Shown one piece after another: positions 37,906-51,743 of a DNA stretch of 64,000 bases; position 1 is the stretch's first letter; each line of letters opens with the position of its first letter. Source of the DNA: Escherichia coli (GTDB taxonomy: Bacteria; Pseudomonadota; Gammaproteobacteria; Enterobacterales; Enterobacteriaceae); NCBI RefSeq assembly GCF_965641715.1, contig NZ_OZ282453.1; one strand, written 5' to 3'. A program made the position numbers and the translations under genes. Below the pieces are notes generated by a model. That model worked only from the letters and a program-made list of their open reading frames with translations, was not told the DNA's origin and did not search any database.

Positions 37906-39132
37906 ATGGGAATTAACGAAATCATCATGTACATCATGATGTTCTTTATGCTGATAGCTGCCGTAGACAGGATCCTGTCGCAGTTCGGCGGTTCTGCTCG
38001 TTTCCTCGGTAAGTTCGGTAAAAGTATCGAAGGATCAGGCGGTCAGTTCGAAGAAGGCTTTATGGCAATGGGCGCACTGGGCCTGGCGATGGTCGGTATG
38101 ACCGCGCTGGCACCGGTACTGGCTCACGTTCTCGGGCCGGTAATTATTCCGGTTTACGAAATGCTCGGCGCTAACCCATCGATGTTCGCCGGAACACTGC
38201 TGGCGTGCGATATGGGCGGCTTCTTCCTCGCCAAAGAGCTGGCGGGCGGCGACGTAGCCGCGTGGCTATACTCTGGGTTAATTCTCGGGTCGATGATGGG
38301 GCCAACGATTGTGTTTTCCATTCCGGTGGCGCTCGGCATTATCGAACCTTCTGACCGTCGTTATCTGGCGCTCGGCGTGCTGGCGGGCATTGTGACCATT
38401 CCGATTGGTTGTATCGCTGGTGGTCTGGTTGCTATGTACTCCGGTGTTCAGATCAACGGCCAGCCGGTGGAATTCACTTTCGCCCTGATCCTGATGAACA
38501 TGATCCCGGTGATCATTGTTGCGATTCTGGTGGCGCTGGGGCTGAAATTCATCCCAGAAAAAATGATCAACGGCTTCCAGATCTTCGCCAAATTCCTCGT
38601 TGCATTGATCACCCTCGGTCTTGCCGCTGCGGTAGTGAAATTCCTGCTTGGCTGGGAACTGATCCCCGGTCTGGATCCTATCTTTATGGCCCCTGGCGAT
38701 AAACCCGGTGAGGTGATGCGCGCCATTGAAGTTATCGGTTCTATCTCCTGCGTTCTGTTAGGGGCGTATCCGATGGTGCTGCTGCTGACCCGCTGGTTTG
38801 AAAAACCGCTGATGAGCGTCGGTAAAGTGCTGAATATGAACAACATCGCGGCAGCCGGCATGGTGGCAACGCTTGCCAACAACATCCCGATGTTCGGCAT
38901 GATGAAGCAGATGGATACCCGCGGCAAAGTCATCAACTGCGCCTTCGCCGTTTCCGCTGCTTTCGCCCTGGGCGACCACTTAGGCTTCGCCGCTGCCAAC
39001 ATGAATGCCATGATCTTCCCGATGATTGTCGGCAAGTTGATCGGCGGCGTAACGGCGATTGGCGTGGCGATGATGCTGGTGCCAAAAGACGACGCGACCG
39101 CGGCTAAAACCGAAGCGGAGGCACAATCGTGA
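37906..39132 (+). CDS. eutH: Ethanolamine permease/facilitator EutH
   Basis: 408 aa, polytopic membrane protein. Confidence 0.94.
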   Translation: MGINEIIMYIMMFFMLIAAVDRILSQFGGSARFLGKFGKSIEGSGGQFEEGFMAMGALGLAMVGMTALAPVLAHVLGPVIIPVYEMLGANPSMFAGTLLACDMGGFFLAKELAGGDVAAWLYSGLILGSMMGPTIVFSIPVALGIIEPSDRRYLALGVLAGIVTIPIGCIAGGLVAMYSGVQINGQPVEFTFALILMNMIPVIIVAILVALGLKFIPEKMINGFQIFAKFLVALITLGLAAAVVKFLLGWELIPGLDPIFMAPGDKPGEVMRAIEVIGSISCVLLGAYPMVLLLTRWFEKPLMSVGKVLNMNNIAAAGMVATLANNIPMFGMMKQMDTRGKVINCAFAVSAAFALGDHLGFAAANMNAMIFPMIVGKLIGGVTAIGVAMMLVPKDDATAAKTEAEAQS

Positions 39133-40532
39133 ACACTCGCCAGCTACTGAGCGTCGGTATCGATATCGGCACCACCACCACCCAGGTGATTTTCTCCCAC
39201 CTGGAACTGGTTAACCGTGCGGCGGTGTCGCAGGTGCCGCGCTACGAATTCATCAAACGCGAAATTAGCTGGCAAAGCCCGGTGTTCTTTACCCCTGTCG
39301 ATAAACAGGGTGGTTTAAAAGAAGCGGAACTGAAATCGCTGATTTTAGAGCAATATCAGGCTGCGGGCATTGCGCCGGAAAGCGTTGATTCTGGTGCCAT
39401 CATCATCACCGGTGAAAGCGCGAAAACCCGCAATGCTCGCCCGGCGGTGATGGCGCTCTCTCAGTCGCTGGGCGATTTTGTCGTCGCCAGCGCCGGGCCG
39501 CACCTCGAATCCGTGATCGCCGGTCACGGTGCCGGGGCGCAAACCCTTTCTGAACAACGGCTGTGTCGGGTACTGAATATCGACATCGGCGGTGGCACCG
39601 CGAACTACGCCCTGTTCGATGCCGGAAAAATCAGCGGCACTGCCTGCCTCAACGTCGGTGGTCGCCTGCTGGAAACCGACAGCCAGGGGCGCGTGGTTTA
39701 CGCTCATAAACCGGGGCAGATGATTGTGGATGAGTGCTTCGGCGCAGGCACCGATGCCCGTTCGCTGACCGGCGCGCAGCTGGTGCAGGTTACCCGGCGG
39801 ATGGCAGAGCTGATTGTCGAAGTGATTGACGGAACGCTTTCGCCGCTCGCGCAGGCATTAATGCAAACCGGTTTGCTGCCCGCAGGTGTTACGCCCGAAA
39901 TCATTACGCTTTCTGGCGGCGTGGGCGAATGTTATCGCCACCAGCCCGCCGACCCGTTCTGTTTTGCCGATATTGGCCCGCTTCTGGCAACGGCGCTGCA
40001 TGACCATCCGCGCCTGCGTGAGATGAACGTGCAGTTTCCGGCGCAAACCGTGCGCGCCACGGTGATTGGTGCGGGTGCACATACCCTTTCGCTCTCTGGC
40101 AGCACAATCTGGCTGGAGGGCGTACAACTGCCGCTGCGCAATTTGCCGGTGGCGATCCCAATTGATGAAACGGATCTGGTGGGTGCCTGGCAACAGGCGC
40201 TGATTCAGCTGGATCTTGATCCCAAAACTGACGCGTACGTGCTGGCGCTTCCCGCCTCGCTGCCTGTGCGTTACGCCGCGGTACTGACGGTCATCAACGC
40301 GTTGGTCGATTTCGTCGCGCGTTTTCCGAATCCGAATCCCCTGCTGGTGGTGGCCGGGCAGGACTTTGGTAAAGCTCTGGGCATGTTGTTGCGCCCACAG
40401 CTACAACAACTCCCGTTGGCAGTCATTGACGAAGTGATTGTCCGCGCGGGGGACTATATCGACATTGGTACGCCTCTTTTTGGCGGATCGGTTGTGCCGG
40501 TGACGGTGAAATCACTCGCATTTCCTTCCTGA
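39129..40532 (+). CDS. eutA: Ethanolamine ammonia-lyase reactivase EutA
   Basis: 467 aa; the TGA stop (40530-40532) lies inside the att core of the island. Confidence 0.94.
   Translation: MNTRQLLSVGIDIGTTTTQVIFSHLELVNRAAVSQVPRYEFIKREISWQSPVFFTPVDKQGGLKEAELKSLILEQYQAAGIAPESVDSGAIIITGESAKTRNARPAVMALSQSLGDFVVASAGPHLESVIAGHGAGAQTLSEQRLCRVLNIDIGGGTANYALFDAGKISGTACLNVGGRLLETDSQGRVVYAHKPGQMIVDECFGAGTDARSLTGAQLVQVTRRMAELIVEVIDGTLSPLAQALMQTGLLPAGVTPEIITLSGGVGECYRHQPADPFCFADIGPLLATALHDHPRLREMNVQFPAQTVRATVIGAGAHTLSLSGSTIWLEGVQLPLRNLPVAIPIDETDLVGAWQQALIQLDLDPKTDAYVLALPASLPVRYAAVLTVINALVDFVARFPNPNPLLVVAGQDFGKALGMLLRPQLQQLPLAVIDEVIVRAGDYIDIGTPLFGGSVVPVTVKSLAFPS
40511..40532. repeat. attL (bacterial arm + 8-bp core CTTCCTGA)
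   Basis: atcactcgcatttccttcctga. The core at 40525-40532 is repeated at 51725-51732, and atcact is also shared. Confidence 0.7.
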
Positions 40533-40582
40533 ATACTGTAGTTATCAGGCGTGGCGCTGGGTGGCTGGGTGTTAGTGGGATT

Positions 40583-40602
40583 ATATCCGGCTGTGTATCC
40601 GG
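40583..40602. repeat. GTATCCGG-type repeats near attL (candidate integrase arm-type sites)
   Basis: atatccgg at 40583-40590 and gtatccgg at 40595-40602. Confidence 0.4.
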
Positions 40603-40626
40603 TCGGGGTGATTGGTCTGTATAGCA

Positions 40627-40648
40627 GAAAACCCGGCGCGGGGCCGGG
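40627..40648 (-). terminator. Rho-independent terminator after the Rha-like gene
   Basis: Minus strand reads cccggc-cccgc-gccggg followed by TTTTT. The hairpin is identical to the one at 42316-42337. Confidence 0.8.
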
Positions 40649-40655
40649 TGAACTA

Positions 40656-41216
40656 TCACTCAGGGAACAAGTTGATTTGAAGCAAACTGCCAATGTATTT
40701 ACCAGTGCTTTTAATTTTTCGCTTTGATGGCTTACACGAATTCAGGTTGACACCAGCCTGGCTAGATATTGGCTTGTATTGCCGCTCCGCCAGTACGATC
40801 AGGTCTGCCGCGTCTTTTAGCTTTCCATCGTTAGCCAGTTCCAATGCTCGATCCGCCATTTGCCCGCATTGTTGAATCAGCTTAAGTTGCGATACCTCCA
40901 GTCGCAATTGCTGGATTCGTTCTACCACTTTCGCCCTAATGCGCTTAGTTTCACGCATTCCCATTCTTAATGCCTGGTTGCCAGTAAGTGAGTAAACCTC
41001 TTTTTCTTTCCTGAAGTTTGCGGCTTTACCGTCAGCTTGGACGCGCATTTTATGCGCTTCCAAGAATTCGCCCTCCAATTCATCCCTGATCTTCGCGTTG
41101 AATCTGTCGTTCTTGAGTTCATTTAACCCTTCCGCCTTGCGGATCTGGTTGATTAACTCCAACAATTCATCACTGCGGATACGCCACTCGCTATCAACCT
41201 GTACCAAGTCAAACAT
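40656..41216 (-). CDS. Rha-like phage regulatory / antirepressor-like protein (186 aa)
   Basis: ORF track 40656-41309 begins at a TTG. I prefer the ATG at 41216 (MFDLVQVDSEWRIRSDELLELINQIRKAEG), which has a GGGAG RBS 7 nt upstream. The domain pattern resembles the Phage_pRha family; this is a memory-based judgement, not a search result. Confidence 0.6.
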   Translation of the reverse strand: MFDLVQVDSEWRIRSDELLELINQIRKAEGLNELKNDRFNAKIRDELEGEFLEAHKMRVQADGKAANFRKEKEVYSLTGNQALRMGMRETKRIRAKVVERIQQLRLEVSQLKLIQQCGQMADRALELANDGKLKDAADLIVLAERQYKPISSQAGVNLNSCKPSKRKIKSTGKYIGSLLQINLFPE

Positions 41217-41380
41217 GTTGTTGCTCCCGTTTTGCTGCCATAGGGCAACGGCTCGCCAGCCTTTATCACCTCCTTTAGTTGTTGCGATTCTTAACTGAAT
41301 GGTTATCAAAACGCTGCGTTAATATCATTGATATGTATCAAATTTGTTTTGTGACGCGACAATGCCTTGTGAATATCAAT

Positions 41381-41404
41381 AAAAAACCCAGCGCTATGGC
41401 TGGG
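41381..41404 (-). terminator. Terminator after the XRE-HTH gene
   Basis: Minus strand reads cccagc-catagc-gctggg followed by TTTTTT. Confidence 0.8.
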
Positions 41405-41437
41405 CTTCGTTTAATGAGATGGGATTGAAAGCGGGTT

Positions 41438-42220
41438 TTATTTATCTCCCAGATTGTATTCCCAGTTGGGAAGTAAAGTTATCAGCTTGTCACCTTTCTT
41501 GCCTTTGCCGATCTGGTTGCCGTTCTCGTCTTTCTTGTGTGTGATTTCCTGGTCAACCTTAATCAATCCTCTCTCTTTGGCTTGCTCAATCAGTCGGTAG
41601 AATGCGCCGTTACTAATCGGCTTCCGGTTACCGTCGTTATCCATCGCAGTGATTTTCTGTTGCAGTCCGGCGTTATTGCCCAGGTATTCGCCACCTAACG
41701 CCGCCAGTACCTGACACAACATGCCGACACTGTATTTTTTCGGATTTGGGTTAATCCATTCTTTAGCTCCCATCTCTTTTTTGTCGTTGGGCGCTTGTTC
41801 TGCTGCTACTGCGTTCACCTTTTCATCTCCCATCTTGTTACCGCTTGCTGTGCGCTTAATTTCTTCCAGTTCTCTCTCAAGCTCACCTATACGTAATTCA
41901 CGCTCGATAATTACCCCGCGCAGCACATCATCATCACCGTGAGGGCTTGCCTGAATCCAGTTACCATTGGCGAGCGGTAGGAGGGCATAAATTCCGAACA
42001 GGTCACAAAGCGCGGCAAGTGTATTAAAATCAGGTTCCCGGCGTCCCTCCATCCAGTGGCTAACAGCGCCTTTTGTGACTGGTTCGCCTTTCTTGCTTTT
42101 AACACCCATGCGATCCAGTGCGGCGGCTATCTCTTCGCATTTAATGCCACGACCGCCAGCATAGCCCGCCGCTTTCGCGGCCCCTTTGAGGATGTCGTGA
42201 ATTTTCATTTCGTAACTCAT
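41438..42220 (-). CDS. XRE/cI-type HTH protein with coiled-coil linker and C-terminal putative winged-helix domain (260 aa)
   Basis: ORF 41438-42235. Start moved to MSYEMKIHDILKGAAKAAG, where the GGGAGA RBS is 8 nt upstream. The segment GIKCEEIAAALDRMGV...TKGAVSHWMEGRREPDFNTLAALCDLFG matches the HTH_XRE pattern. Confidence 0.7.
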   Translation of the reverse strand: MSYEMKIHDILKGAAKAAGYAGGRGIKCEEIAAALDRMGVKSKKGEPVTKGAVSHWMEGRREPDFNTLAALCDLFGIYALLPLANGNWIQASPHGDDDVLRGVIIERELRIGELERELEEIKRTASGNKMGDEKVNAVAAEQAPNDKKEMGAKEWINPNPKKYSVGMLCQVLAALGGEYLGNNAGLQQKITAMDNDGNRKPISNGAFYRLIEQAKERGLIKVDQEITHKKDENGNQIGKGKKGDKLITLLPNWEYNLGDK

Positions 42221-42230
42221 AATTTTATCT

Positions 42231-42258
42231 CCCATCTCATGAACTATGGTGGGAGATT
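42231..42258. promoter_or_regulatory. 28-bp box copy 1 (CCCATCTCAT-N9-TGGGAGATT), overlapping the RBS of the HTH gene
   Basis: Near-identical box at 42939-42966. ATCTCCCA (42227-42234) and TGGGAGAT (42250-42257) form a perfect 8-bp inverted repeat. Confidence 0.5.
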
Positions 42259-42315
42259 AACACGGCGGGCCTGTGGCGGGTAAGTGTAACGGGAGAGAAT
42301 GTTGATTCAGGTCAC

Positions 42316-42337
42316 AAAAACCCGGCGCGGGGCCGGG
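42316..42337 (-). terminator. Terminator after the 158-aa gene
   Basis: aaaaacccggcgcggggccggg is identical over 21 nt to the terminator at 40628-40648. Confidence 0.8.
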
Positions 42338-42359
42338 CTGTGTTAGTACGTCGTTGCTC

Positions 42360-42836
42360 TTAGTTCATGAGGAGATCTTTAAATTCGACGCCGTATTCAT
42401 GGGCAATGTCGCCTCTATAGTAGATGTTATCTTTCAGGATATATCCGACGTTTCTCAGGACGTGAGAACACTCTCTTACTGCTGCCTCTTTACCCCTTAA
42501 AACATCCTCCCCGCTAACTTCTTCGCCGCTGTACTTCACTGCGATGTTGTCTGCTGCACGCTCTGCTGCTTCCAGGCAATTAATCTTCACTTTTCCCCGA
42601 TTCTCCCAGGCAAAATCGCGGCCATAAATCCCCATTGCATCAACCATCTTTTGCGCAGTAGTGCGCTCATCCACCCATTCAGTGCGTTCGAACTTCTCGC
42701 CAGCAGCTACCCTTGCCGCCAGTTGTTCGTGTTGAGTCTGTACGGCCGCAGCCTCTTCTTCCCATTTGCCTTGCTCGTTGTATACGATGAAGCCAGTGAT
42801 GACTGCAGCGATTAGTAACTTGTCCAGAAAATTCAT
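42360..42836 (-). CDS. Membrane-anchored (N-terminal TM) protein of unknown function, 158 aa
   Basis: Strong RBS AGGAGGA 6 nt before the ATG. MNFLDKLLIAAVITGFIVY signal-anchor, then a soluble domain with two Cys. Confidence 0.7.
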   Translation of the reverse strand: MNFLDKLLIAAVITGFIVYNEQGKWEEEAAAVQTQHEQLAARVAAGEKFERTEWVDERTTAQKMVDAMGIYGRDFAWENRGKVKINCLEAAERAADNIAVKYSGEEVSGEDVLRGKEAAVRECSHVLRNVGYILKDNIYYRGDIAHEYGVEFKDLLMN

Positions 42837-42938
42837 AGCTTCCTCCTATCTGTTCAATTACCCGGCATCTCTTGCCGTTGAACGTATTAAACAAAATGCC
42901 AGTCAGGGATAAAGCGATCTGCGTCATAAAGTCCATCC

Positions 42939-42966
42939 CCCATCTCATTGATATTGATGGGAGATT
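42939..42966. promoter_or_regulatory. 28-bp box copy 2, about 100 nt upstream of the 158-aa gene
   Basis: CCCATCTCAT-tgatattga-TGGGAGATT. On the minus strand it overlaps a candidate promoter, CTGACC-N18-CAATAT. Confidence 0.45.
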
Positions 42967-43041
42967 GTTTAATTGGTCAGAAATTAAGCGTTTATGTGCG
43001 CTGCCGGGTATCCACCTCCTATCTGAAGATGGAAAGATGGG

Positions 43042-43123
43042 TGATATAATGTGATGGCAATTGGTGGATTGCGTGGTTTTTACAATGATAAGGGGCTGGC
43101 GTAATGCTGGCCCCTTTGTTTAT
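43042..43123 (+). ncRNA. Candidate ~65-nt plus-strand sRNA (promoter through terminator)
   Basis: Perfect extended -10 TGaTATAAT at 43042-43050. First hairpin gcaat-N6-attgc at 43057-43072. An 11-bp terminator stem at 43090-43116 has two G-U pairs, so it only folds well on the plus-strand RNA. It is followed by TTTGTTTAT. Confidence 0.4.
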
Positions 43124-43162
43124 CCGGTATCCGGTATCCGGTATAAGCGGGCGTGTATCCGG
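43120..43162. repeat. Internal cluster of TATCCGG/GTATCCGG repeats
   Basis: tTATCCGGTATCCGGTATCCGG (three tandem 7-mers) plus gtatccgg at 43155-43162. The segment cgtgtatccggtagcgggga resembles ctgtgtatccggtcggggtga at the left end. Confidence 0.6.
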
Positions 43163-43356
43163 TAGCGGGGATATGGGCGCGTGTACGTGAAATCTGGCAA
43201 ATTAGCAGGGTAATTGTGAGGGAATTTTTGCGTAGGAGCGTTTGTGGCTGGTAGCTCAAAATTGAGCTTTGCTTTTCATTCAATGACTTAGGTTAATTCT
43301 AGCAAAACGCTAGGATTGAATGTCCGCCAGTCTGCTTCCCCTAGCGTGGGATTTGG

Positions 43357-45723
43357 TCAACGTCTGCGCGGCTGCAAAATTCCTCCGGGTCGTTGTGATT
43401 CACGCTGCATCAGTCGCATCGCTGTGTTTTCTATGGTCTGCTGCAGCGCTTTTGAGTCTTCCTCTGTCCAGCCGTTGTTAGCCTGGATGTTGAACGTATT
43501 GTTCATCGTGATTCCGCCACCGCCTACCAGATCGCGGCCCGGTGTAACTCGTCCACCTTCACCCGGGATCATGTACTGTTTCCCGCCAGTGGATGTAAAT
43601 AGCTCCGGTACTCCGTGCTCCCCGACCCTATAAAGATTGCCACCGTTAACAGCCCCGCCGTTGTAACGAGCGCCAGCCAGTCCAAGCGTTTTGGCGGCAG
43701 CTACGCCAGTAGTAAGCCCGGTAAGTCCAGTGGCCCCAGCGCCGCCCATCGTGGCTACGTTAGCCAGGTATGCAGGAGTGGCCCACGCCGATCCTAATGC
43801 TGTAGCCTCTGCTAGTGCTTTAGCTGTTGCGGCTGCGTTTGCGGCTTCACCAATTAGCTGCTGTTTAACCCACTCAGCACCCATCTGGACAATGCCACCG
43901 ACCACAGAAGACAGGATCGTACTGCCAACGTTGGCAAGTGACTCTTGCAGCGATTGAGTACCGTTTATCAGTCCGGTAAATGCGCTGCCAGCGCCAGACG
44001 ATAACCCATCGACCATATTCCCGATGAGGCCATTTATATCGCTTTGTTTCTTCCACTGCTGCCACTGGAGATCCAGAACCCTTTGTTCATGTGCGATCTC
44101 TTCCTGGCGCAACTGCTCTTCGGTAGCCCCAAGATCTAGAAGCATTTGCTTGCGAACAGCCCATTCATTTTGGATCTTCTGTATTGGGTCAATCTGAGCT
44201 TTCTGCTTATCCTGCTCACTGACAAGACTGTCCCATTTCGCTTTCTGCTTGCGGATGGCTTCAGCTTCATCAATTGCTGCGAGTGTACTTGCTCGCTGTT
44301 TCGCGCTGATCAACCGTTTCTGCTCAGCCGCTTCCAGGTCTTCTACTGCTTTTTTCCGTTTATTGAGCGCCGCTAGTTCGGGATCGTATTTTTCCACCAA
44401 TGAAAGGCCGCTTGCTTCCTTACGTTCGCGTTCTCTTTGTGCCTGTTTGGCTGCCTGCTTAGCGGCGTTTTCTGCTTGTTTGGCTGCTCTTTCTTTCGCC
44501 CTGGTGTTCTCTTCTTCCTTGCGCTTATTCTCTTCTAACTCCTTGTTTTGTTCGCGTAATTTAACGATTTCCTCATGATGCGCCTTTGTCAGCTGGCCTT
44601 CTTTCAGTGCCCGATCTATATCAGCGTTTGCGTTGCCTTTTAGCTGTTCCTGTTTAACTTGCAGATGTTTAATCATCATTTCGCCAGTGGCAATCGCTGC
44701 CGCAGACGCTCCAGCATTCAGAGCTTCATTTAACGCTCTCTGACGTTCTTCTGCTGTTAATGCCTCGTTGCTGTATCGAAGTAGCGCATCAACGTATTTC
44801 TCCAGTTCTGCGCGGCCTGCCGCAGTTGCTGGTTCCATTGCTTTTAGGATGCTCAGAAGGCTTTGCGCTTCATAGGAAGACGGGTTTTTGCGGAACTGCG
44901 CCATAGCGTTATAAAGCGCCATAGCTTCACCCTCTGTGATTCTGTACTTAGCTCCCAGCCCTTCAATGACCGCTGATAACTGTTTGCCAAGCGCTGCACC
45001 GAATGCGCCTTCCTTGCTTAATTTGTTGAGCACTTCACTCAGTGAATTTCCTGACACGCCCAGCGCGTCGAGTTCTCTTGCTACCGTTCCCAGGTCGCCG
45101 CCTTTCATCCATCCTGCATTAGAAAATTCAGTGATAGCCCGGCCCGCTTCCCGCGTTTCTTCCTGGAGTGTTTTTAGCGCCCGCACGGCCTGCTCTTTCA
45201 TTACGGCGGCGGCAATGGCGTTGTTCTGTGTGGCTTCGTAATATGAATCACTGAAAGCGTTAACGCCCTGGGTGGATTTGCCGATCACGGCGTCGATTGA
45301 TGCTAATGCCTCCTTCATCCTTTCAGCGCTATCCGTTGCGTCGTCCATGCTGTCCGTTAGGCTGTTGGCAATCGCCCCGCCAATAGCCATCACCGCCCCC
45401 ATGACCGCACCGCCAGTACCGAAGGCAGCGGCAAGTTGTGCACCCTGCACAGCGAACGCCTGGAGCGCATTACCGCCCATCTGCAATTGAGTGGCAAGGT
45501 CTGCGATCTGGTATGATGCGTTACGGATTGCCGGGGAAAGGTTGGTTTTGACTGCGGCAGACGTTTTGGTCATCTGCGTGTTCAGTTTTTTGACGCCACT
45601 GTCAGCGCGTTTTGCGCCGCGTTCTATACTGTCAAAAGCCTGGTCCGCTTCTTGTTGTGCTGCCAGGAGTTTACCAGTACGGGCGTCGACCTCATAGTAT
45701 ATGGTCCCAAGATTCCCACTCAT
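43357..45723 (-). CDS. Phage tail tape-measure protein, lambda gpH-like, 788 aa, apparently full length
   Basis: The N-terminal YQIADLATQLQMGG segment, the long E/K/A/Q coiled-coil core, and the Gly-rich hydrophobic C-terminal region ending GG..YRVGEHGVPELF ... NNTFNIQANNG match my memory of gpH domain order. Confidence 0.8.
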   Translation of the reverse strand: MSGNLGTIYYEVDARTGKLLAAQQEADQAFDSIERGAKRADSGVKKLNTQMTKTSAAVKTNLSPAIRNASYQIADLATQLQMGGNALQAFAVQGAQLAAAFGTGGAVMGAVMAIGGAIANSLTDSMDDATDSAERMKEALASIDAVIGKSTQGVNAFSDSYYEATQNNAIAAAVMKEQAVRALKTLQEETREAGRAITEFSNAGWMKGGDLGTVARELDALGVSGNSLSEVLNKLSKEGAFGAALGKQLSAVIEGLGAKYRITEGEAMALYNAMAQFRKNPSSYEAQSLLSILKAMEPATAAGRAELEKYVDALLRYSNEALTAEERQRALNEALNAGASAAAIATGEMMIKHLQVKQEQLKGNANADIDRALKEGQLTKAHHEEIVKLREQNKELEENKRKEEENTRAKERAAKQAENAAKQAAKQAQRERERKEASGLSLVEKYDPELAALNKRKKAVEDLEAAEQKRLISAKQRASTLAAIDEAEAIRKQKAKWDSLVSEQDKQKAQIDPIQKIQNEWAVRKQMLLDLGATEEQLRQEEIAHEQRVLDLQWQQWKKQSDINGLIGNMVDGLSSGAGSAFTGLINGTQSLQESLANVGSTILSSVVGGIVQMGAEWVKQQLIGEAANAAATAKALAEATALGSAWATPAYLANVATMGGAGATGLTGLTTGVAAAKTLGLAGARYNGGAVNGGNLYRVGEHGVPELFTSTGGKQYMIPGEGGRVTPGRDLVGGGGITMNNTFNIQANNGWTEEDSKALQQTIENTAMRLMQRESQRPGGILQPRRR

Positions 45724-46012
45724 AATATCTTTATCCGCGTTGTGCGGACACCTCCGATTATTCTTTACTCTAATAATTTCACAATGAAACAGTTTATTGC
45801 CGCTTCAGTGGCTTCGTGTTCCGGTTTGCTTCGATCAATCACAAAAAATACAGCTTAATAGAATCAATGGCTTATAAAGTTGTATTAGCTATGTTTCTTC
45901 GTCCGTGCCACTGAAAACCCAGTTTTTCCAATGGAATCAATACTGATATGTATCCATACTGTTTTTCACATAATGTACGTTATGCGCACTACGGGAAACG
46001 TACTGAATTTAT

Positions 46013-46243
46013 TTACTGGTCGCCGTTCAGTTCATGCAGAGTCTGTTCTGGCAATGAATCCAGCCAGTTTTCTGCATCCTCCCTGTAACACTCCAGGATG
46101 CAACGGTTTGTGAAGTTGATGAAAGCGGTCAGTGATTCTGCTTCGTCGTTCCTGTGCGTTCTCCTGGCGTGCTTGCGTAGTCGTTTCGCGTCTGCCAGTT
46201 GGTCATTGAGTATCTTCAGTCTGTCGGCAATATCATCGTTCAT
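46013..46243 (-). CDS. Hypothetical 76-aa helical protein
   Basis: GGGAGAG RBS 5 nt upstream of the ATG; protein-like charged helical composition; no family recognised. Confidence 0.55.
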   Translation of the reverse strand: MNDDIADRLKILNDQLADAKRLRKHARRTHRNDEAESLTAFINFTNRCILECYREDAENWLDSLPEQTLHELNGDQ

Positions 46244-46378
46244 GTCGTCTCTCCCTCGCGCGCGCGTCGTACTTGTCCGAAAATTACCCCCATAAAAGCG
46301 CCCCTCATATAGTGCAAAATCCCGGCTGACGCGGATCTCAGTGGGTTTTAGCAGTGAAAACTGACATCAAAAACGGCT

Positions 46379-46426
46379 CGCTAAGGTCCGCTAAGTATCC
46401 GCTATCGTTCGCTAACCCCCCGCTAA
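46379..46426. repeat. Five phased CGCTAA (minus strand TTAGCG) direct repeats
   Basis: Copies start at 46379, 46389, 46400 (CGCTAT), 46410 and 46421. The spacings of 10, 11, 10 and 11 bp equal one helical turn. Confidence 0.85.
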
Positions 46427-46430
46427 CCTA

Positions 46431-46796
46431 TTAGATATCGCATCCAACGCTATTGAGCTGGCTATGTATATCGGCGCGAATTAACTTCAGGCGTTTACAA
46501 AATTCGCGTTCTTCCGAATTAAGCTCGCGGCCACCTTGTTTCGAGGCAATGAGCTTGTTGATGGTGGAAAGCGAATATTCACTCCATATACGAAGCATTT
46601 GTCGCTTCATTGGTTGCTCGCTCAATGGTGAGTTTTTCAGGTCTGACACGCGCTCTGCGACGGTTCTTGCGATGCCTTGTACCACTCGTAGTGCCAACAT
46701 GATGATTTTCTCCGGACTTGTGCTAATATAGTTCCCGAACATTGTTTCGAGACTGCTTATCCTGTTTGTCTTGTCCGATTTGTTCATTGGTCGCAT
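46431..46796 (-). CDS. Hypothetical 121-aa protein
   Basis: ORF with protein-like composition (…IIMLALRVVQGIARTVAERVSDL…) but no obvious SD. A hairpin lies just upstream, and the stop abuts the CGCTAA array. Confidence 0.5.
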   Translation of the reverse strand: MRPMNKSDKTNRISSLETMFGNYISTSPEKIIMLALRVVQGIARTVAERVSDLKNSPLSEQPMKRQMLRIWSEYSLSTINKLIASKQGGRELNSEEREFCKRLKLIRADIHSQLNSVGCDI

Positions 46797-46838
46797 TGTT
46801 AAGTCAGCCGGGGTAATTCCCGGCTTTCTTTTATCCGA

Positions 46839-47381
46839 TCAGTACCGAATCCCTATCGCATTGAATACGCGTTTCCGTTGCTCAGCTTCAGGATCGGCGG
46901 CCATTTCTGGTTCTGGCTCCGGCATAGACGGGGCGGCATCAAAATGCTCAATTTCACGACCGAAATACGAGTTCAGGTCAATACCTGCCGAACTATCCAC
47001 TCCATCAAAATAGCGACGCTGTTCCTCGGTGAGACAGCTACCCAGACGTTCCTCAACCTGCGCCATAAACTCAGCATCCGGTGAGAAGTACTCATCCGGA
47101 GTCGGAGCACCGCTCTGTTTGTGCATCTCCATTTTCTCTGCGTTCGTTTTCAGCCCGGCAATGCGTTTCTCCAGTCCGGCGGCTTTAATAGCGTCAGCAA
47201 CGATTTGTGGGATCTGCGGTTTAATTATTTCGATAACTTCATTGCTGATTAATTTAAACTGGGCCATACGGATCGCTTTAATCTGCTTATTTAACAGTGC
47301 GCGTTCCCCTTCGTTGGCGGTTTTATCACGCTGTGCTACCAGTTCATCGCCTTTGTTTGTCAGTACATCAAATGCGTCCAT
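46839..47381 (-). CDS. Hypothetical 180-aa protein with acidic, Pro-rich C-terminal part
   Basis: Strong RBS GGAGGAGG; starts 17 nt after the stop of the 108-aa ORF. Confidence 0.65.
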   Translation of the reverse strand: MDAFDVLTNKGDELVAQRDKTANEGERALLNKQIKAIRMAQFKLISNEVIEIIKPQIPQIVADAIKAAGLEKRIAGLKTNAEKMEMHKQSGAPTPDEYFSPDAEFMAQVEERLGSCLTEEQRRYFDGVDSSAGIDLNSYFGREIEHFDAAPSMPEPEPEMAADPEAEQRKRVFNAIGIRY

Positions 47382-47398
47382 TGTCTTTCCTCCTCCGA

Positions 47399-47725
47399 TT
47401 ATTTAAAAGTGCTTATTGACACGCCGAAACGACGACTTAATTCAAAAAGGAGTCGCGCCTTTGCAGTGCCTTCCATGTCTTCCGGCATTTCAGACTGAAG
47501 TTTATCAGCTACTTCATCAACAAGTGGCCGAACCGTTTCCACGAACTTGTCCGCAATATAATCAGCAGAACGCATCACTTTTTCCTGGAATTCCTCACGG
47601 CGTACCTGGGCGGCTGATTTAGGGGCTGTCGTGCGCTGAAAATAACTGTCTAATGAATGCATGGCATCTGCTCCTTTTACTTTGATTGCTGTTATTTCTT
47701 TAATTGTGTTTGCTTTGATTTTCAT
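47399..47725 (-). CDS. Hypothetical 108-aa protein
   Basis: AAGGA RBS; first gene downstream of alpA in the same orientation. Confidence 0.55.
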   Translation of the reverse strand: MKIKANTIKEITAIKVKGADAMHSLDSYFQRTTAPKSAAQVRREEFQEKVMRSADYIADKFVETVRPLVDEVADKLQSEMPEDMEGTAKARLLFELSRRFGVSISTFK

Positions 47726-47801
47726 GCTGCCTATTCCTTCAGAAATTGCGGTAGTTTGCTTTTTAAATCAATAAGTTATTTGATAATCTCAGTAGCTGTT
47801 T

Positions 47802-47993
47802 TCATTGGTGGCGAGCGCCTTTGTTTTTATAGAATTCCAAAATCTCAGATCGGATAAACTTAATTCTTGAGCCAATCGGACTGACCGGGACGGGCCAGCC
47901 TTTAATCTTGTTCATCCACCGGAATATTGTCCGACGGGTAACGCCGAATAAAGCTGCTACCTCGTTAACCGTCATTAATTCGCTATCATTCAT
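47802..47993 (-). CDS. AlpA-family (Phage_AlpA/HTH_17) transcriptional regulator / excisionase-like protein, 63 aa
   Basis: LMTVNEVAALFGVTRRTIFRWMNKIKGWPVPVSPIGSRIKFIRSEILEF is the typical AlpA/MerR-like HTH. GAGGTGAG RBS. Confidence 0.85.
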   Translation of the reverse strand: MNDSELMTVNEVAALFGVTRRTIFRWMNKIKGWPVPVSPIGSRIKFIRSEILEFYKNKGARHQ

Positions 47994-47996
47994 GTT

Positions 47997-48046
47997 CTCA
48001 CCTCAAAAAGTAGCGGTGAGGAAAATATGGAGAAAACCCTCACCGC
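47997..48046 (-). promoter_or_regulatory. Terminator-like leader hairpin immediately upstream of alpA; one arm duplicates the SD
   Basis: mRNA sense: GCGGTGAGG-N16-CCTCACCGC (9-bp perfect stem), then UACUUUUU, then GAGGUGAG (SD), then AAC-AUG. The 3' arm can also pair with the SD (CUCACC/GGUGAG). Confidence 0.55.
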
Positions 48047-48090
48047 GCCCTGAATGAAATTAAAGACCAACATTACTGTTGATACTTATT

Positions 48091-48096
48091 ATTATA
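48091..48096 (-). promoter_or_regulatory. Candidate -10 (perfect TATAAT) for the alpA operon
   Basis: Minus strand reads ggaaTATAATaa, about 95 nt upstream of the alpA ATG. The -35 is weak (ATGTGA). Confidence 0.3.
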
Positions 48097-48185
48097 TTCC
48101 TCCTGTCCCTGTTTCACATCTTTTACCATATAGTGAAAGGGGATATTCTGTAATGTTTACAAAACTTTTAATTAGCAAAAAATAA

Positions 48186-48306
48186 TTGCGCATCTCACGT
48201 AATGCAGGGATAATATTACTCAAGGGCTGGTTGCCCTTACTCAAAATGTGATCTATAACTACAACGATCTATTTCACTTCCCCGCTTTCTCCGGCGGGAT
48301 TTTTTT
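48186..48306 (+). ncRNA. Candidate ~85-nt plus-strand sRNA (promoter through terminator)
   Basis: TTGCGC-N17-GATAAT at 48186-48214. 5' hairpin aagggc-tggtt-gccctt at 48222-48238. 3' hairpin cccgc-N8-gcggg followed by a run of seven T at 48300-48306. Confidence 0.3.
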
Positions 48307-49118
48307 GCCTGCAATCTGGCACCATTGCGCACATTAAAATTAGATGCCATTTAAAAGCGATATAACGCGTTCTGCCGGGCTTAATTTTGGCTATCCACTT
48401 GGAAGGGTAAGCCTGTTTTGATTCGTCTGGCGTGGAATGGTGCGGCGGTAATATCAGATCTCAGCGTTCTGCGTGGTGGGATGAAATAGCCTGGCAGGAT
48501 TTGCGTGTGGTTTGCTCTCCCAAAAAATGGGGTAATGGCGCTGGCTGGATGGCAGGACTCCGCGCTGATTACTGGATGGCTGAAAATTTAATGAAATCGC
48601 ATCAATTTTAATGCGTCTAAATCGCTCTGTGGCGACGTGAAGTTTTCAGGTAAGCAAGTGTAGCTGTGTGGTGTGTTCATCGCGTTACTGGCACCATTCC
48701 GTTCGAATTTGGCGCTATCAGGATGGTTTGCGGTGGTCGGCGGCGGGGATAAACTTGCTTGAGTGGTCACCTCAGCCTGCTGTGCGTCGTGTGATGGTAC
48801 TGTCTGCACCTGGCTATACGCTGCTTTGCTGCTGTTTCCTGTCTGGTCTGTATACGCGATAAAACCCATCGGCTTTACAGTGAGTGAGTTTTTTGCGCTT
48901 TGCTTTCCATTCGGTTTGCTTACTGCTGCTGTGTGTCTGTGCGGTAGCTCAGAAAGCTGTCGATGATAACCATCACTGCCAGACCGTCTTTTGAGCTGGC
49001 GATTGCTCGAAGTCTTCCGAAGGTCCGCTGGGCTTGTTGCTTGTTTGTGTTCTTTTAAAATGCGCGCCTCTTACTTTCTCTTAAAAAGAAAAAAGGAATA
49101 TACAGATCTCATACTATG

Positions 49119-49273
49119 TGTGTCCCAAATGTCACACGTCATGGCCTGACCTGTATCCCAAATGTCACACGTCACCCTCTGACCTGTATCCCAAATGTCA
49201 CACGTACCTGTGTCCCAAATGTCACACGTCTATTGTTAATTAATTGTTGACCTGTGTCTCAAATGTCACACGT
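49119..49273. repeat. Five direct 21-bp iterons TGTRTCCCAAATGTCACACGT (putative ori)
   Basis: Copies at 49119-49139, 49152-49172, 49185-49205, 49209-49229 and 49253-49273 (one mismatch). Start spacings are 33, 33, 24 and 44 bp. Four copies are preceded by (G)ACCTG. An AT-rich tract with AGATCT lies at 49081-49110. Confidence 0.85.
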
Positions 49274-49290
49274 CTGTTGATGGTTTAAGT

Positions 49291-49320
49291 AATAAAAAGG
49301 GCCACCATTTTAGGTGACCC
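49291..49320 (-). terminator. Terminator after the Rep-like gene
   Basis: Minus strand reads gggtcacc-taaaat-ggtggccc followed by TTTTTATT. Confidence 0.7.
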
Positions 49321-49338
49321 ATTGATGCGTTTTAGTCG

Positions 49339-50103
49339 TTATCTTGCGTTCTCGACCTGAAAAAGCATTCTGTATTTTCTTGCGTGCTGACCAATAACAT
49401 ATTCCCCGTATGGCTCAATGAGTCCTAACTCAACCAGGATTTTCATCTGGCGAATTACGGTGCGGCGATTCATGCCCCATTCATCAGCTATTTTTGCCTG
49501 GCAAACTTCAGATACATAAGATCCATCATTCTGCTTTCTTGCTGCTGATGCAATGCTGGATAATACGCTCCAGGCTGTAGCTTTAGCTTTATTCTCGCAA
49601 CCACTTCTGACAAATGCCTTACGTGCCGCACCCAAACAGACATAACTGCAATAAATTCCTTTTTCTTCCGTTTGGTATTGTGTCTCTTTATCCTGCATGG
49701 CTTCCGGTTCTTCCGGCGCTTCCTGCTGTGGTGCTGTCTGCGAAGTTTTAGCGGCCATACTGCGTAGCTCGTTCACGATATCAGTAGCTGATTTCTTCTC
49801 GCTTTTAGTTTCCTGCGTGACTGATAAATACTCACCTTGTAACGCCAGGAAGTCAGCGCGGGCGTTTGCCTGGCTTTGTTCTGGTGATTCAGGTTCTGCA
49901 TCGGCAGGTGATGAAATCGGTGATACACGCGCCCAGCCTGTTTTGGCGTTGCATTCCCAGCGATAACCATTAAAGCGGATATCATTCAGGCCATCATCAA
50001 TGGCGCTCCGTACTTCTTCCGGGATCGCGTCGATTTTCTGAAGGCTGTGTTTACCGAGTGATTCGCCTTGCCGTGGGGCGTAGGCGGTTGGTAAAATATT
50101 CAT
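49339..50103 (-). CDS. Putative iteron-binding replication initiator / winged-helix DNA-binding protein, 254 aa
   Basis: AAGGAGAA RBS. The C-terminal segment IADEWGMNRRTVIRQMKILVELGLIEP is a wHTH-like motif. A long acidic Q/E/P-rich linker is present. The gene is directly followed by a terminator and the iteron array. No primase or helicase motifs. Confidence 0.55.
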   Translation of the reverse strand: MNILPTAYAPRQGESLGKHSLQKIDAIPEEVRSAIDDGLNDIRFNGYRWECNAKTGWARVSPISSPADAEPESPEQSQANARADFLALQGEYLSVTQETKSEKKSATDIVNELRSMAAKTSQTAPQQEAPEEPEAMQDKETQYQTEEKGIYCSYVCLGAARKAFVRSGCENKAKATAWSVLSSIASAARKQNDGSYVSEVCQAKIADEWGMNRRTVIRQMKILVELGLIEPYGEYVIGQHARKYRMLFQVENAR

Positions 50104-50173
50104 GTGGGATTTCTCCTTTTTACTTGTTTCCCATATCGCCCGGATTGGTTAGCGGCCTTCCGGGCTTTTTGTT
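50068..50173 (+). ncRNA. Candidate countertranscript (antisense) RNA to the rep leader, ~70 nt, with its promoter
   Basis: TTGCCG-N18-TGgTAAAAT (extended -10) at 50068-50097 places the TSS near 50104, abutting the rep ATG. The transcript is complementary to the rep SD (ttctcctt at 50111-50118). It ends at hairpin gcccgga-N14-tccgggc followed by TTTTTGTT (50138-50173). Confidence 0.5.
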
Positions 50174-50317
50174 GCGTTGATCCTATTTTCGATCCCCGGA
50201 TTTTTTATTACAAACTTGGCTTAATCATTGATTTTATTGGTATAGCTGTATAAAAGGATAACAGGATAAAAGGGTGATAGATTGTGTAACCTGTTAACCT
50301 TTTATACCAGTAAGGCG

Positions 50318-50341
50318 AAAGAAAAGCCGGACGAATCCGGC
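50318..50341 (-). terminator. Terminator after the integrase gene
   Basis: Minus strand reads gccgga-ttcg-tccggc followed by TTTTCTTTC. Confidence 0.75.
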
Positions 50342-50349
50342 CTTATAGT

Positions 50350-51555
50350 TCACGGCTCCAGCGGATTACCGCCACCAGCCAATATCTGGTCGATGGCGTC
50401 GCTGTAGTCCTGCATCATGGCCCGCCGTTGCTTCAGATAGGCCGCCTGGTTATAAACGCCGCGCACACCTTTCGGAACGTGGGCCAGTTGGATTTCGATC
50501 CAGTCTGGTGAGTATCTGCCGTACTCGTTAAGTGCGGTTGAAAAGGTGGTTCGCCAGCCGTGACCAGTGGCTATCGACTTGTATCCGATACGCTCCAGGG
50601 CTTTAAGGATGGCACTGGCTGAAAGTGGCTTATCCATGAATCGACCAGGGAACACAAAAGCACTGTATCCGCTGCGGGTAAACTGGTCCTGTAATAGCTC
50701 GACCGCCTGCCGGGATAGCGGGACCACATGCGGGCGGCGGGCCTTCATGACTTCAGCGGGTAGGGTGATGGTTGCCGATTCCAGATCTACCCACTCCCAG
50801 CGCATTAAACGCAGTTCTGCGGTCCTTAGGGCGCTTAATATAAGCAAACGTATTGCCGTCTGAATCTGAACGCTCCCGGCTCTCTCAAGGGCTTTGTAGA
50901 AGGCCGGGATTTCGTTAATTTGTATCCATGCGTTATGGCCTGGGCGTCGGGCTTTCAATGCCGTGTCCAGATCTGCAACCGGATTTCGGTTAACCAGTTC
51001 AGTGATAACGGCAAATTTGAAGATTTCCCCTATACGCTGCCGTAATTTTCGGGCCTGTTCCGGCGCGGTGCGCTCTTTCTTCTGAAGCAATGCCAGCACG
51101 TCACGGGCCGTTATATCGACAATCGACCGCTTGCCAAGTACCGGATAAACATCTTTCTCCAGTGCCGATCTAACTTGTTTCGTGTAAGACTCAGACCAAC
51201 CGCTCACTCTGGTAGCAAACCAGTCTTCCGCTACCGTCTTAAAACTTGCCGCCATGTTGAGCGCATCAATGGCTTTCTCCTTGCGCGCTTCTTCCATTGG
51301 GTCAATTCCCTGGGCGATGAGTAAACGGCTCTCTGTGGCGCGTTTACGTGCTTCCTTCAAGGTAATCAGCGGATATACCCCAATAGCCTGTAACCGCTCT
51401 TTCTTGTCTATCCAGTACCGGAATCGCCAGTATTTGCTGCCATTGGGATGTACCAGCAAGAACAGGCCAGGTGTCTGTGAATCGGTGAGTTTGTAGGGCT
51501 TGTCCTTCGGCTGGGCGGCCTCTATGCCCTTTGCTGTCAGTGGTGTCTTGCTCAA
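50350..51555 (-). CDS. P4-family tyrosine integrase (N-terminal arm-binding DUF4102-type domain), 401 aa; occupies the position of K-12 intZ
   Basis: TTG start with a GAGGT RBS. KPYKLTDSQTPGLFLLVHPNGSKYWRFRY is the typical P4-integrase N-terminus. C-terminal catalytic residues are present: ...HGWRTTFST...LAHV...GVYNQAAY. Confidence 0.9.
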   Translation of the reverse strand: MSKTPLTAKGIEAAQPKDKPYKLTDSQTPGLFLLVHPNGSKYWRFRYWIDKKERLQAIGVYPLITLKEARKRATESRLLIAQGIDPMEEARKEKAIDALNMAASFKTVAEDWFATRVSGWSESYTKQVRSALEKDVYPVLGKRSIVDITARDVLALLQKKERTAPEQARKLRQRIGEIFKFAVITELVNRNPVADLDTALKARRPGHNAWIQINEIPAFYKALERAGSVQIQTAIRLLILSALRTAELRLMRWEWVDLESATITLPAEVMKARRPHVVPLSRQAVELLQDQFTRSGYSAFVFPGRFMDKPLSASAILKALERIGYKSIATGHGWRTTFSTALNEYGRYSPDWIEIQLAHVPKGVRGVYNQAAYLKQRRAMMQDYSDAIDQILAGGGNPLEP

Positions 51556-51557
51556 AA

Positions 51558-51604
51558 CCGGATACCTCGATCTAACGACTCGATAACCCCGCTCATGTAT
51601 CCGT
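51558..51604. repeat. GTATCCGG-type motifs near attR (candidate arm-type sites)
   Basis: ccggatac (inverted) at 51558-51565, overlapping the int RBS, and gtatccgt at 51597-51604. Confidence 0.35.
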
Positions 51605-51717
51605 CGCGTTCGGTTGCGTTCGGCAGGATAAGTAACGGGCGTATTAAGTGGAACACCTTACAGGACAAGGGATAACGATGAAATAGAATTGTTCGAATGC
51701 TGTGAAAAATGTTACTC

Positions 51718-51732
51718 ATCACTTCTTCCTGA
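51718..51732. repeat. attR (element-borne imperfect copy of the eutA 3' end)
   Basis: atcacttcttcctga, followed directly by gggaacgacttATG of eutB, the expected uninterrupted eutA-eutB junction. Confidence 0.7.
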
Positions 51733-51743
51733 GGGAACGACTT

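Follow-up and report, generated by a model that had tools for sequence, protein, structure and literature searches.

Do the genes at the end of a mobile genetic island work together as one system, or are they separate units that share a location? The question is raised by three genes at the integrase-distal end of a satellite-like island in Escherichia coli, contained in a stretch of 64,000 nucleotides (RefSeq assembly GCF_965641715.1, contig NZ_OZ282453.1) that is referred to here as the window and whose coordinates are used throughout. The three genes lie on the minus strand and are referred to as g3 (42360–42836, 158 aa, YffR family), g2 (41438–42220, 260 aa, YffS family, with an alternative in-frame ATG at 42235) and g1 (40656–41216, 186 aa). 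A preliminary description had treated them as one module, a candidate immunity or interference cassette.

The answer towards which we lean, with slightly more confidence than doubt, is that the segment is an integrase-distal row of moron-type cassettes of a CPZ-55-family satellite, each transcribed and terminated on its own, and not one system. Morons are autonomous phage cassettes. Recombination at a shared 5' junction and a shared 3' terminator would reassort these cassettes between island variants, and the cassettes would be expressed from the integrated island under cAMP-CRP control. Within the row, g2 would bind repeats that bracket its own −10 and ribosome-binding site and the g3 leader, acting as a local autoregulated regulator and not as a master repressor; g1 might act on the repressor of another element, or on the replisome via DnaN; and g3 might have an envelope role, such as the exclusion of incoming phage. 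The finding amounts to a sound lead; it does not demonstrate a new system.

Each gene has its own terminator

A G+C-rich hairpin followed by a U-tract lies downstream of each of g1, g2 and g3 on the same strand, so that the individual termination of the three genes, proposed earlier, is borne out. The terminator of g3 (42317–42340, minus strand; minimum free energy (MFE) −16.9 kcal/mol) and that of g1 (40631–40649, minus strand; stem ACCCGGC/GCCGGGT followed by UUUUCUGCU; MFE −16.8 kcal/mol) are associated with the two exact copies of a 21-mer, AAAACCCGGCGCGGGGCCGGG, at 42317–42337 and 40628–40648 respectively. This confirms the 21-nt identity that had been pointed out before, and shuffled sequences give an expectation of 0.02 such copies even with 3 mismatches allowed. 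The terminator of g2 (41383–41408, minus strand; 10-bp stem, U6; MFE −17.2 kcal/mol, z −4.55) is 71% identical to the 21-mer. The z-scores of the three terminators range from −2.2 to −4.6, and few or no shuffles fold equally well.

The ribosome-binding sites are less uniform than had been claimed: that of g3 (AGGAGGA, 5 nt upstream of the ATG) is strong, but those of g2 (GGGAGA) and g1 (GGGAG) are moderate. As to whether each gene is an autonomous unit, the terminators are present, and support for promoters is confined to in vitro data from K-12 on homologous regions.

Cassette shuffling at shared ends

Comparison with related islands places breakpoints on shared terminators and 5' elements, and cassette shuffling, suggested earlier by the identical terminators, is therefore well supported. 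In H9Ecoli, homology with the window runs from the att site as far as 42337, where the g3 terminator ends, and a different gene lies beyond. ATCC 8739 is 99% identical over 41264–43675, and its different g1-family allele starts just after the conserved Shine-Dalgarno sequence (SD) AAAGGAGGTGATA. K-12 lacks g1, and its lone terminator aligns to both the 40628–40648 and the 41383–41403 copies. Six other loci each have a single exact copy of the 21-mer, which follows g3, g1 or yffS.

The shared cassette ends are a 5' junction, GAGATGGGAGAT, which comprises an ATG and a Shine-Dalgarno element (GGAG), and a 3' terminator, CCCGGCCCCGCGCCGGG. Six of the nine window matches to GAGATGGGAGAT lie within 41765–43045, and the repeat motif is confined to 41.4–43.05 kb, with none in the int, alpA and rep regions. 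In related islands GAGATGGGAGAT directly precedes the starts of several small genes, GATGGGAG(A/G) stands before gene starts in several islands, and motifs of the GAGATGGGAGAT type occur twice inside yffS, where they flank a 20-aa indel. The idea that GAGATGGGAGAT is a dedicated operator was weakened by its position in front of many gene starts in related islands, which makes it, in part at least, a translation-initiation region put to repeated use.

A comparable arrangement is known from T4-type phages, in which the PeSL mobile regulatory cassettes consist of short conserved regulatory sequences that flank unrelated open reading frames (ORFs) and act as recombination junctions. The use of conserved flanking sequences as junctions for modular shuffling is the same here; in contrast to PeSL, a translation-initiation motif and a terminator form the shared ends, and the host is not a lytic phage but a satellite island.

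At the DNA level, among 5426 complete genomes, g3 is present in 12, g1 in 24 and the distal region in 451. These different frequencies, together with independent assortment, argue against a single co-inherited three-gene system, and the earlier grouping of the genes into one module is not supported. That g2, g1 and g3 nevertheless act jointly as one immunity or interference cassette, excluding phage or manipulating a helper prophage, we consider unlikely. YffR-, YffS- and g1-like genes do stand side by side in ATCC 8739, OW1E2, GF3-3 and the island L005, and their alleles show the deep divergence and mosaicism that conflict genes usually have; the neighbouring slot of H9Ecoli holds an AIPR (Abi-type) gene. 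For phage-inducible chromosomal islands (PICIs), immune systems located at the 5' or 3' end have been reported (PMC11364771). Against such a joint function, however, stand the separate terminators and the K-12 data that indicate separate promoters, the presence of yffR and yffS without g1 in K-12 and of g1 and yffS without a YffR homologue in H9Ecoli, the occurrence of g1 on either side of yffS, and the lack of a match among the PADLOC models.

Island context and relationship to CPZ-55

The row of cassettes that we favour belongs to an island that interrupts the eut operon, with eutH at 37906–39132, eutA at 39129–40532 and eutB starting at 51744. The island occupies 11.2 kb between eutA and eutB (40533–51733) and is bounded by the 8-bp repeat CTTCCTGA, of which the attR core copy (40525–40532, plus strand) lies at the eutA stop codon and the partner at 51726–51733. 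This repeat is the duplication described for the K-12 cryptic prophage CPZ-55, reported as the 8-bp sequence TCAGGAAG (PMC6379469).

All element genes are carried on the minus strand. The integrase IntZ (50350–51555, minus strand) is 94% identical to that of K-12 CPZ-55, and is followed by a 254-aa winged-helix protein (49339–50103, minus strand) with weak matches to replication-initiator PHROGs (Rep-like). Five iterons of ~22 nt, TGTGTCCCAAATGTCACACGTC, lie directly downstream of the Rep-like gene (49119–49285, minus strand), and the two together probably constitute the origin and initiator of the island. An AlpA/HTH_17 protein (47802–47993, minus strand) is identified by Pfam and PHROG matches, and a tape-measure-like protein of 788 aa (43357–45723, minus strand) by phrog_1538 (E 8e-112); the island further encodes several small proteins of no recognised family.

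Of the features that characterise PICIs, the integrase, the HTH_17/AlpA protein, the iterons and the Rep-like protein are present; as to a helper-hijacking module, the window has the lone tape-measure-like gene. Together with the att repeats, and with a small terminase (TerS)-like gene in relatives, these features underlie the view that the island family looks like a PICI-type phage satellite, the CPZ-55 family, as judged from its gene content. The three-gene segment forms the integrase-distal accessory end of this island, in agreement with its original placement. The tape-measure-like gene is full length and stands alone, with no chaperone or distal-tail genes in the island. Its product is 52–60% identical to the tape-measure protein of mEp021-group coliphages, which suggests these phages as possible helpers. 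In relatives the same slot is filled by a TerS-like gene (K-12) or by the AIPR Abi-type gene (H9Ecoli), and relatives at the eutA|eutB site and at a second site (integrase 30% identical) have a small terminase and no tape-measure gene. The small terminase of K-12-type relatives, YffO in K-12, resembles Sf6 gp1 (PDB 3hef, E 1e-10).

The closest described counterpart of the segment is the yffQ-yffR-yffS region of CPZ-55. It shares with the window the eutA|eutB insertion site, the 8-bp repeat, the integrase and a leader upstream of a variable slot, as well as homologous CRP-site sequences and a homologous inverted repeat at the 5' end of yffS. It differs in that K-12 has yffQ and a 20-codon hydrophobic ORF, both missing from the window, and has no g1, and in that K-12 carries the Sf6-type small terminase YffO together with YffP in place of the 788-aa tape-measure-like gene. 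The segment also resembles the accessory ends of PICIs and Staphylococcus aureus pathogenicity islands (SaPIs), and phage morons, in its integrase-distal position, in the terminators (in K-12 also promoters) that its units have of their own, and in a content that differs among otherwise related islands; unlike in PICI and SaPI accessory ends, no described defence protein is matched here, and yffS is conserved family-wide and is not variable cargo.

g2 and the YffS family

The genes are not orphans, g2 and g3 being homologues of YffS and YffR of K-12 CPZ-55. g2 is 70–74% identical to K-12 YffS (b2450) over 100% of its length and occupies the same locus beside eutA. A search of 5.8 billion proteins finds YffS proteins 52–99% identical to g2 in 28 clusters, all from E. 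coli; YffS is absent outside E. coli from 185,579 species genomes (one per species) and has no match in IMG/VR. YffS is the last gene, or the next to last where g1 follows, in every island examined, across two integrases and two att sites. This constant end position and its presence across the family indicate that YffS is a conserved family gene and not free cargo.

In the alignment of the family the N-terminal half is variable, the linker is repetitive with indels, and the C-terminal domain is nearly invariant. The AlphaFold2 (AF2) model of g2, built from this alignment, consists of an XRE-type helix-turn-helix (HTH) domain at residues 1–90 (predicted local distance difference test (pLDDT) >90), a coiled coil or long helix at 97–126, a disordered linker at 126–159 and a winged helix at 160–260. 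Foldseek comparison relates the N-terminal domain to the ImmR DNA-binding domain (7t8i, TM 0.81, root-mean-square deviation 1.2 Å) and the C-terminal domain to PadR/Pex/MarR winged helices (probability up to 0.99); for the full-length protein no structural analogue is found in the PDB or BFVD, the matches being at domain level only. Pfam matches are weak (HTH_31, E 4.9e-4, 20.8 bits with a cut-off of 27; HTH_3, E 1.9e-3), and neither an S24 peptidase nor a cI dimerisation domain is matched by Pfam at the C-terminus. The XRE-type HTH, the coiled coil and the second DNA-binding domain of the original characterisation are retained, the HTH clearly so at the level of the predicted fold, and g2 is a YffS-family protein with two predicted DNA-binding domains. 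Compared with ICEBs1 ImmR and phage cI, g2 shares the N-terminal HTH fold, but in place of an S24/cI C-terminal domain it has the coiled coil and the PadR/Pex-like winged helix, and no ImmA-type protease is adjacent.

In K-12, YffS is among the most-changed proteins of the nucleoid fraction in a strain without nine nucleoid-associated proteins (bioRxiv 10.64898/2026.08.21.744486). Diversification of the YffS N-terminal domain as a source of immunity specificity was rejected, because the recognition helix shows little variation.

Two in-frame copies of the junction motif are present inside g2 (41765–41836, minus strand), AAGATGGGAGAT (KMGD) and GAGATGGGAGCT (EMGA), and flank a 20-aa segment that is deleted in the 249–250-aa YffS alleles. 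The second copy coincides with the exact start of the conserved winged-helix domain, and the copies suggest a past gene fusion or an internal start.

Regulatory elements of the distal segment

Two inverted repeats accompany the starts of g2 and g3. The first, AATCTCCCA-N15-TGGGAGAT (42227–42258, minus strand; MFE −13.4 kcal/mol), brackets an AT-rich −10-like hexamer, overlaps the SD and the alternative ATG of g2, and is conserved in all yffS alleles. The second, AATCTCCCATC-N11-GATGGGGGAT (42935–42966, minus strand; MFE −14.8 kcal/mol), lies in the g3 leader and is 78% identical to the first. Operators for the conserved YffS domain and hairpins that sequester the SD are both conceivable roles for these repeats. 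g2 is probably an autoregulated local regulator.

Each repeat is accompanied by a CRP-like site. The site TGTGAcctgaaTCAAC / TTTTTGTGAcctgaaTCAAC (42301–42316, minus strand) directly follows the U-tract of the g3 terminator, is kept upstream of every yffS allele and is homologous to the K-12 yffS site ttTGTGAtctgcgTCAATatt, which binds CRP in vitro with a dissociation constant (Kd) of 1.4 nM (PMC12871828). If the −10-like hexamer of g2 is used, this site would be centred near −72.5, a position of class I. The site TATGAcgcagaTCGCT (42913–42928, minus strand) lies in the g3 leader and is homologous to the K-12 site upstream of yffQ, ttTGTGAtgcagaTCGCTttt (Kd 2.3 nM in vitro; PMC12871828). Genomic systematic evolution of ligands by exponential enrichment (SELEX) with CRP includes yffQ and yffS among its targets (PMC3105977), and RpoD SELEX places K-12 promoters in the yffP–yffQ and yffR–yffS intervals (PMC3946193). 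Further upstream, a leader or promoter block (43176–43240, minus strand) precedes the variable slot and shares 92% identity with the corresponding K-12 sequence, which lies upstream of yffQ.

The proximal border of the module is marked by an antisense unit on the plus strand (43036–43122), in which GATGGGTGATATAAT, containing a perfect extended −10, is followed by a terminator with a U-tract (43090–43116). It is a candidate gene for a small RNA of ~65 nt (43056–43122), as predicted from these two elements. The 15-mer GATGGGTGATATAAT is found exactly in the window, ATCC 8739, K-12 and the yeiH-site islands L008 and L009; the stem sequence of the terminator differs by island type, with the hairpin retained in each, and this hairpin probably also ends the upstream operon. 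A search of Rfam at E≤1 over the whole island gave no matches.

An 18-codon upstream ORF (uORF), MGDGLYDADRFIPDWHFV (42887–42943, minus strand), starts at an ATG in the right arm of the g3-leader repeat. It has an 18-codon counterpart in K-12, MGGEFCDADRFFPSGIFV (6917–7003 region of locus L004), which ends at the same TAA, and its frame is broken in L008; the uORF overlaps the CRP site, so that its conservation may not be due to coding. In K-12, an unannotated 20-codon hydrophobic ORF, MKRWEVALLVMVMLVCCIEL, with the motif GATGGGAGG before its start, is located upstream of yffQ (7019–7081 of L004, plus strand). It is kept as MKRWELILLVAVMIICCIEL in the yeiH-site island L008 and is absent from the window.

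The distribution of the motif also bears on a second alternative, in which g2 is a satellite master repressor of the Stl/ImmR kind that keeps the island quiescent, with g1 as its cognate antirepressor or one directed at the helper. This is suggested by the presence of g2 in every family island examined, by the resemblance of its HTH to the ImmR DNA-binding domain, and by the arrangement after excision and circularisation, when yffS would adjoin int across attP. Yet there is a single repeated candidate operator, which is found in the distal module alone and is missing near int, the Rep-like gene and alpA; this argues against a master repressor provided that the motif is the YffS operator. Moreover, the genes of the island all point in one direction and include an AlpA-type activator, as in Gram-negative PICIs that are not known to have a master repressor, K-12-type islands lack g1, and g1 and the YffS N-terminal domain do not co-vary. 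On balance this alternative appears very unlikely.

Selection on g1 and g2

Two of the cassettes of the favoured reading, g1 and g2, bear signs of maintenance. The ratio of non-synonymous to synonymous substitution rates (dN/dS) is 0.11–0.22 for g1 and 0.19–0.29 for g2, and values in the range of 0.1–0.3 indicate that both encode functional proteins under purifying selection. For yffS and g1, dS reaches saturation in some comparisons, and the two halves of each gene differ in history; in the mosaic yffS gene, the comparison of the window with H9Ecoli gives a dS of 0.06 for the C-terminal part and saturation for the N-terminal part.

We consider it hardly probable at all that the genes are decaying remnants of a cryptic prophage without current function, whose repeats and terminators would be traces of past recombination. 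CPZ-55 has been classed as a cryptic or 'grounded' prophage (PMC6379469), all three families are without annotation, and frameshifted or fused g1 variants exist (P0033 and P0034). On the other hand, the ORFs are intact, dN/dS of g1 and g2 remains low over saturating dS, the C-terminal domain of YffS is nearly invariant, binding of CRP and of RNA polymerase has been measured and the YffS protein detected in K-12, and islands at two att sites retain the regulatory blocks.

g1, an Ant-type module with a conserved tail

Within the favoured row of cassettes, g1 follows g2 in the window. It consists of an N-terminal Ant-type module, a helical linker and a conserved C-terminal tail. Residues 13–128 align to residues 116–227 of P1 Ant1 with 37% identity over 117 aa (pairwise BLASTP, E 2e-15), tblastn of g1 against P1 gives E values of 3e-9 to 6e-9, and PHROG anti-repressor families are matched at E 8e-6 to 3e-4. 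The KilAC/ANT domain of P1 Ant1 (residues 234–336) lies beyond the aligned stretch. In g1 there is no match to Pfam Rha (PF09669) at E≤0.1 and none to KilAC (PF03374), and the Rha profile run against ten g1-family members and phage homologues gave one weak match (E 0.011) that falls below the threshold. Of the earlier label, Rha/antirepressor-like, the similarity to the P1 Ant1 module remains but membership of the Rha or KilAC families does not; in terms of sequence, 'antirepressor-like' is a partial similarity and not family membership.

Relative to P1 Ant1/Ant2 of the immI region, g1 has the same Ant-type module, which is also the leading part of proteins, KilAC-type and otherwise, in Klebsiella, Shewanella and other phages; it differs in having neither a KilAC/ANT domain nor the context of an icd gene or c4 RNA, and carries a clamp-type tail instead. 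Satellite P4 encodes epsilon, a small antirepressor that derepresses the helper prophage. The parallel with g1 would be a functional analogy for g1 only, the two proteins having no sequence relationship.

The tail contains QINLF (residues 180–184; codons 40665–40679, minus strand), 2 residues from the C-terminus. β-clamp-binding motifs follow Q-φ-x-[L/M][F/L] or Q-φ-x-[L/M]-x-[F/L] (PMC11139829), and UmuC carries QLNLF (PMC3716654). In all aligned intact members of the g1 family, homologues of 21–81% identity, the tail reads LLQINLFPE, LLQIDLFPE, LIQPDLFD or LLQPELPLE; QINLF and QIDLF fit the clamp motif, and QPDLF (as pentapeptide) and QPELPL (as hexapeptide) fit except for the proline at position 2. 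The g1 tail is a lead for a candidate β-clamp (DnaN)-binding peptide, and g1 may be a helper- or replisome-directed factor.

g1-family proteins of 21–28% identity adjoin YffS-like genes in ATCC 8739 and L005, and closer alleles of 183 aa (~69% nucleotide identity in GF3-3) are found at that position in GF3-3 and OW1E2. In phage records, g2 and g3 have no counterpart, and g1 has distant partial ones only.

Two further elements are observed around the g1 start. The interval 41305–41380 (minus strand), between the g2 terminator and g1, contains TTGATA/TATCAA elements that include a perfect palindrome, TTGATACATATCAA. A strong AAAGGAGGTGAT that is apparently not used sits 60 nt ahead of the g1 ATG, precisely at the point of divergence of the ATCC 8739 allele.

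g3 and the YffR family

The relationship of g3 to YffR came from local BLASTP and an exhaustive HMMER search. BLASTP between island variants gives 34% identity to K-12 YffR (b2449) over 140 aa (E 9e-16), and the exhaustive search added a 127-aa relative, P0041, with 44% identity; a k-mer-seeded search recovered near-identical proteins only and missed YffR. Conserved between g3 and YffR are the N-terminal hydrophobic segment, GRD[FY]AWE, CL.AA..VADN, VREC and both cysteines. The AF2 model of g3 from the single sequence is unusable (pLDDT 44). No PHROG, Pfam or PADLOC family is matched by g3, and tblastn finds nothing in 50,697 phage records; its only IMG/VR relative sits among small unannotated ORFs.

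The N-terminal hydrophobic helix of the earlier account is present at about residues 7–19, but the comparison to superinfection exclusion (Sie) proteins and i-spanins is limited to topology, as neither homology nor a lysis context accompanies it; no holin or endolysin is found near g3. From the charge distribution and the pair of cysteines, g3 is predicted to have an N-in/C-out topology, and is probably anchored or exported, with a helical domain in the periplasm.

A functional partnership between g3 and the tape-measure gene was dropped, since K-12-type islands have YffR and no tape-measure gene. A 157-aa gene that follows the mEp021 tape-measure gene was considered as a relative of g3 and is presumably unrelated, g3 being without a match in the phage set that holds mEp021.

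Points against the reading and its reach

Several observations weigh against the moron-type cassette reading or against individual parts of it. A simple scan found no sigma-70 consensus promoter on the gene strand. The CRP-like sites of the window have two mismatches, and 25 such matches are found window-wide against 24.6 expected; with no enrichment, the relevance of these sites rests on their homology to the measured K-12 sites. GAGATGGGAGAT may be no more than a translation-initiation region that is reused, and with its right arm invariant it offers no covariation in favour of an operator or an RNA hairpin. For g1, we estimate the chance occurrence of a 5-residue clamp motif at ~0.04 per protein of its size, and two divergent alleles have proline at motif position 2. 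Identical g1 alleles stand beside different YffS N-terminal domains in the window and H9Ecoli, which makes g1 an unlikely cognate partner of that domain. The predicted topology of g3 draws on charge distribution and conserved cysteines only. PADLOC-DB v2 models yield no family for g1, g2 or g3 at E≤0.01, consistent with the earlier failure to name a defence system. Searches of NCBIfam with the three proteins and PDB sequence searches with single proteins and family profiles likewise gave nothing significant, and no mention of the RefSeq protein accessions of the ATCC 8739 and H9Ecoli homologues was found in the papers searched.

A more ambitious interpretation, which we rate as quite unlikely, would make the distal module a catabolite-controlled, cassette-built conflict toolkit of an E. 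coli-specific satellite family. YffS would be a two-domain repressor that forms a switch with the antisense small RNA (43056–43122), g1 would dock on the β clamp via QINLF to hijack or block host or helper replication or to couple helper derepression to the replisome, and the YffR-like protein would block phage entry; in that case K-12's CPZ-55 would be a satellite, degenerate or intact, and no dead prophage. Should g1 indeed bind the sliding clamp, or YffS control a switch, this would be a new type of satellite-helper-host interaction; if neither holds, what remains is a set of moron-type accessory genes of the ordinary kind. yffR and yffS, K-12 genes without known function, are now placed in a recombining, CRP-linked accessory module, and in a family of satellite-like islands present in ~8% of E. 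coli genomes.

Further repeats of the island

CCGGATA/TATCCGG repeats (40582–40612) adjoin attR, and a 77%-identical 31-nt copy is located at 43118–43172, just upstream of the distal module. The repeats could be arm-type sites of the integrase, and the internal copy, which occurs also in islands with a different integrase, could mark an older island end and a tandem accretion. Finally, a 21-nt inverted repeat, GTATAAAAGGATAACAGGATA / TAACCTGTTAACCTTTTATAC (50248–50307), lies between int and the Rep-like gene; its arms are 90% complementary and separated by an 18-nt spacer, and it could be an operator or a terminator.

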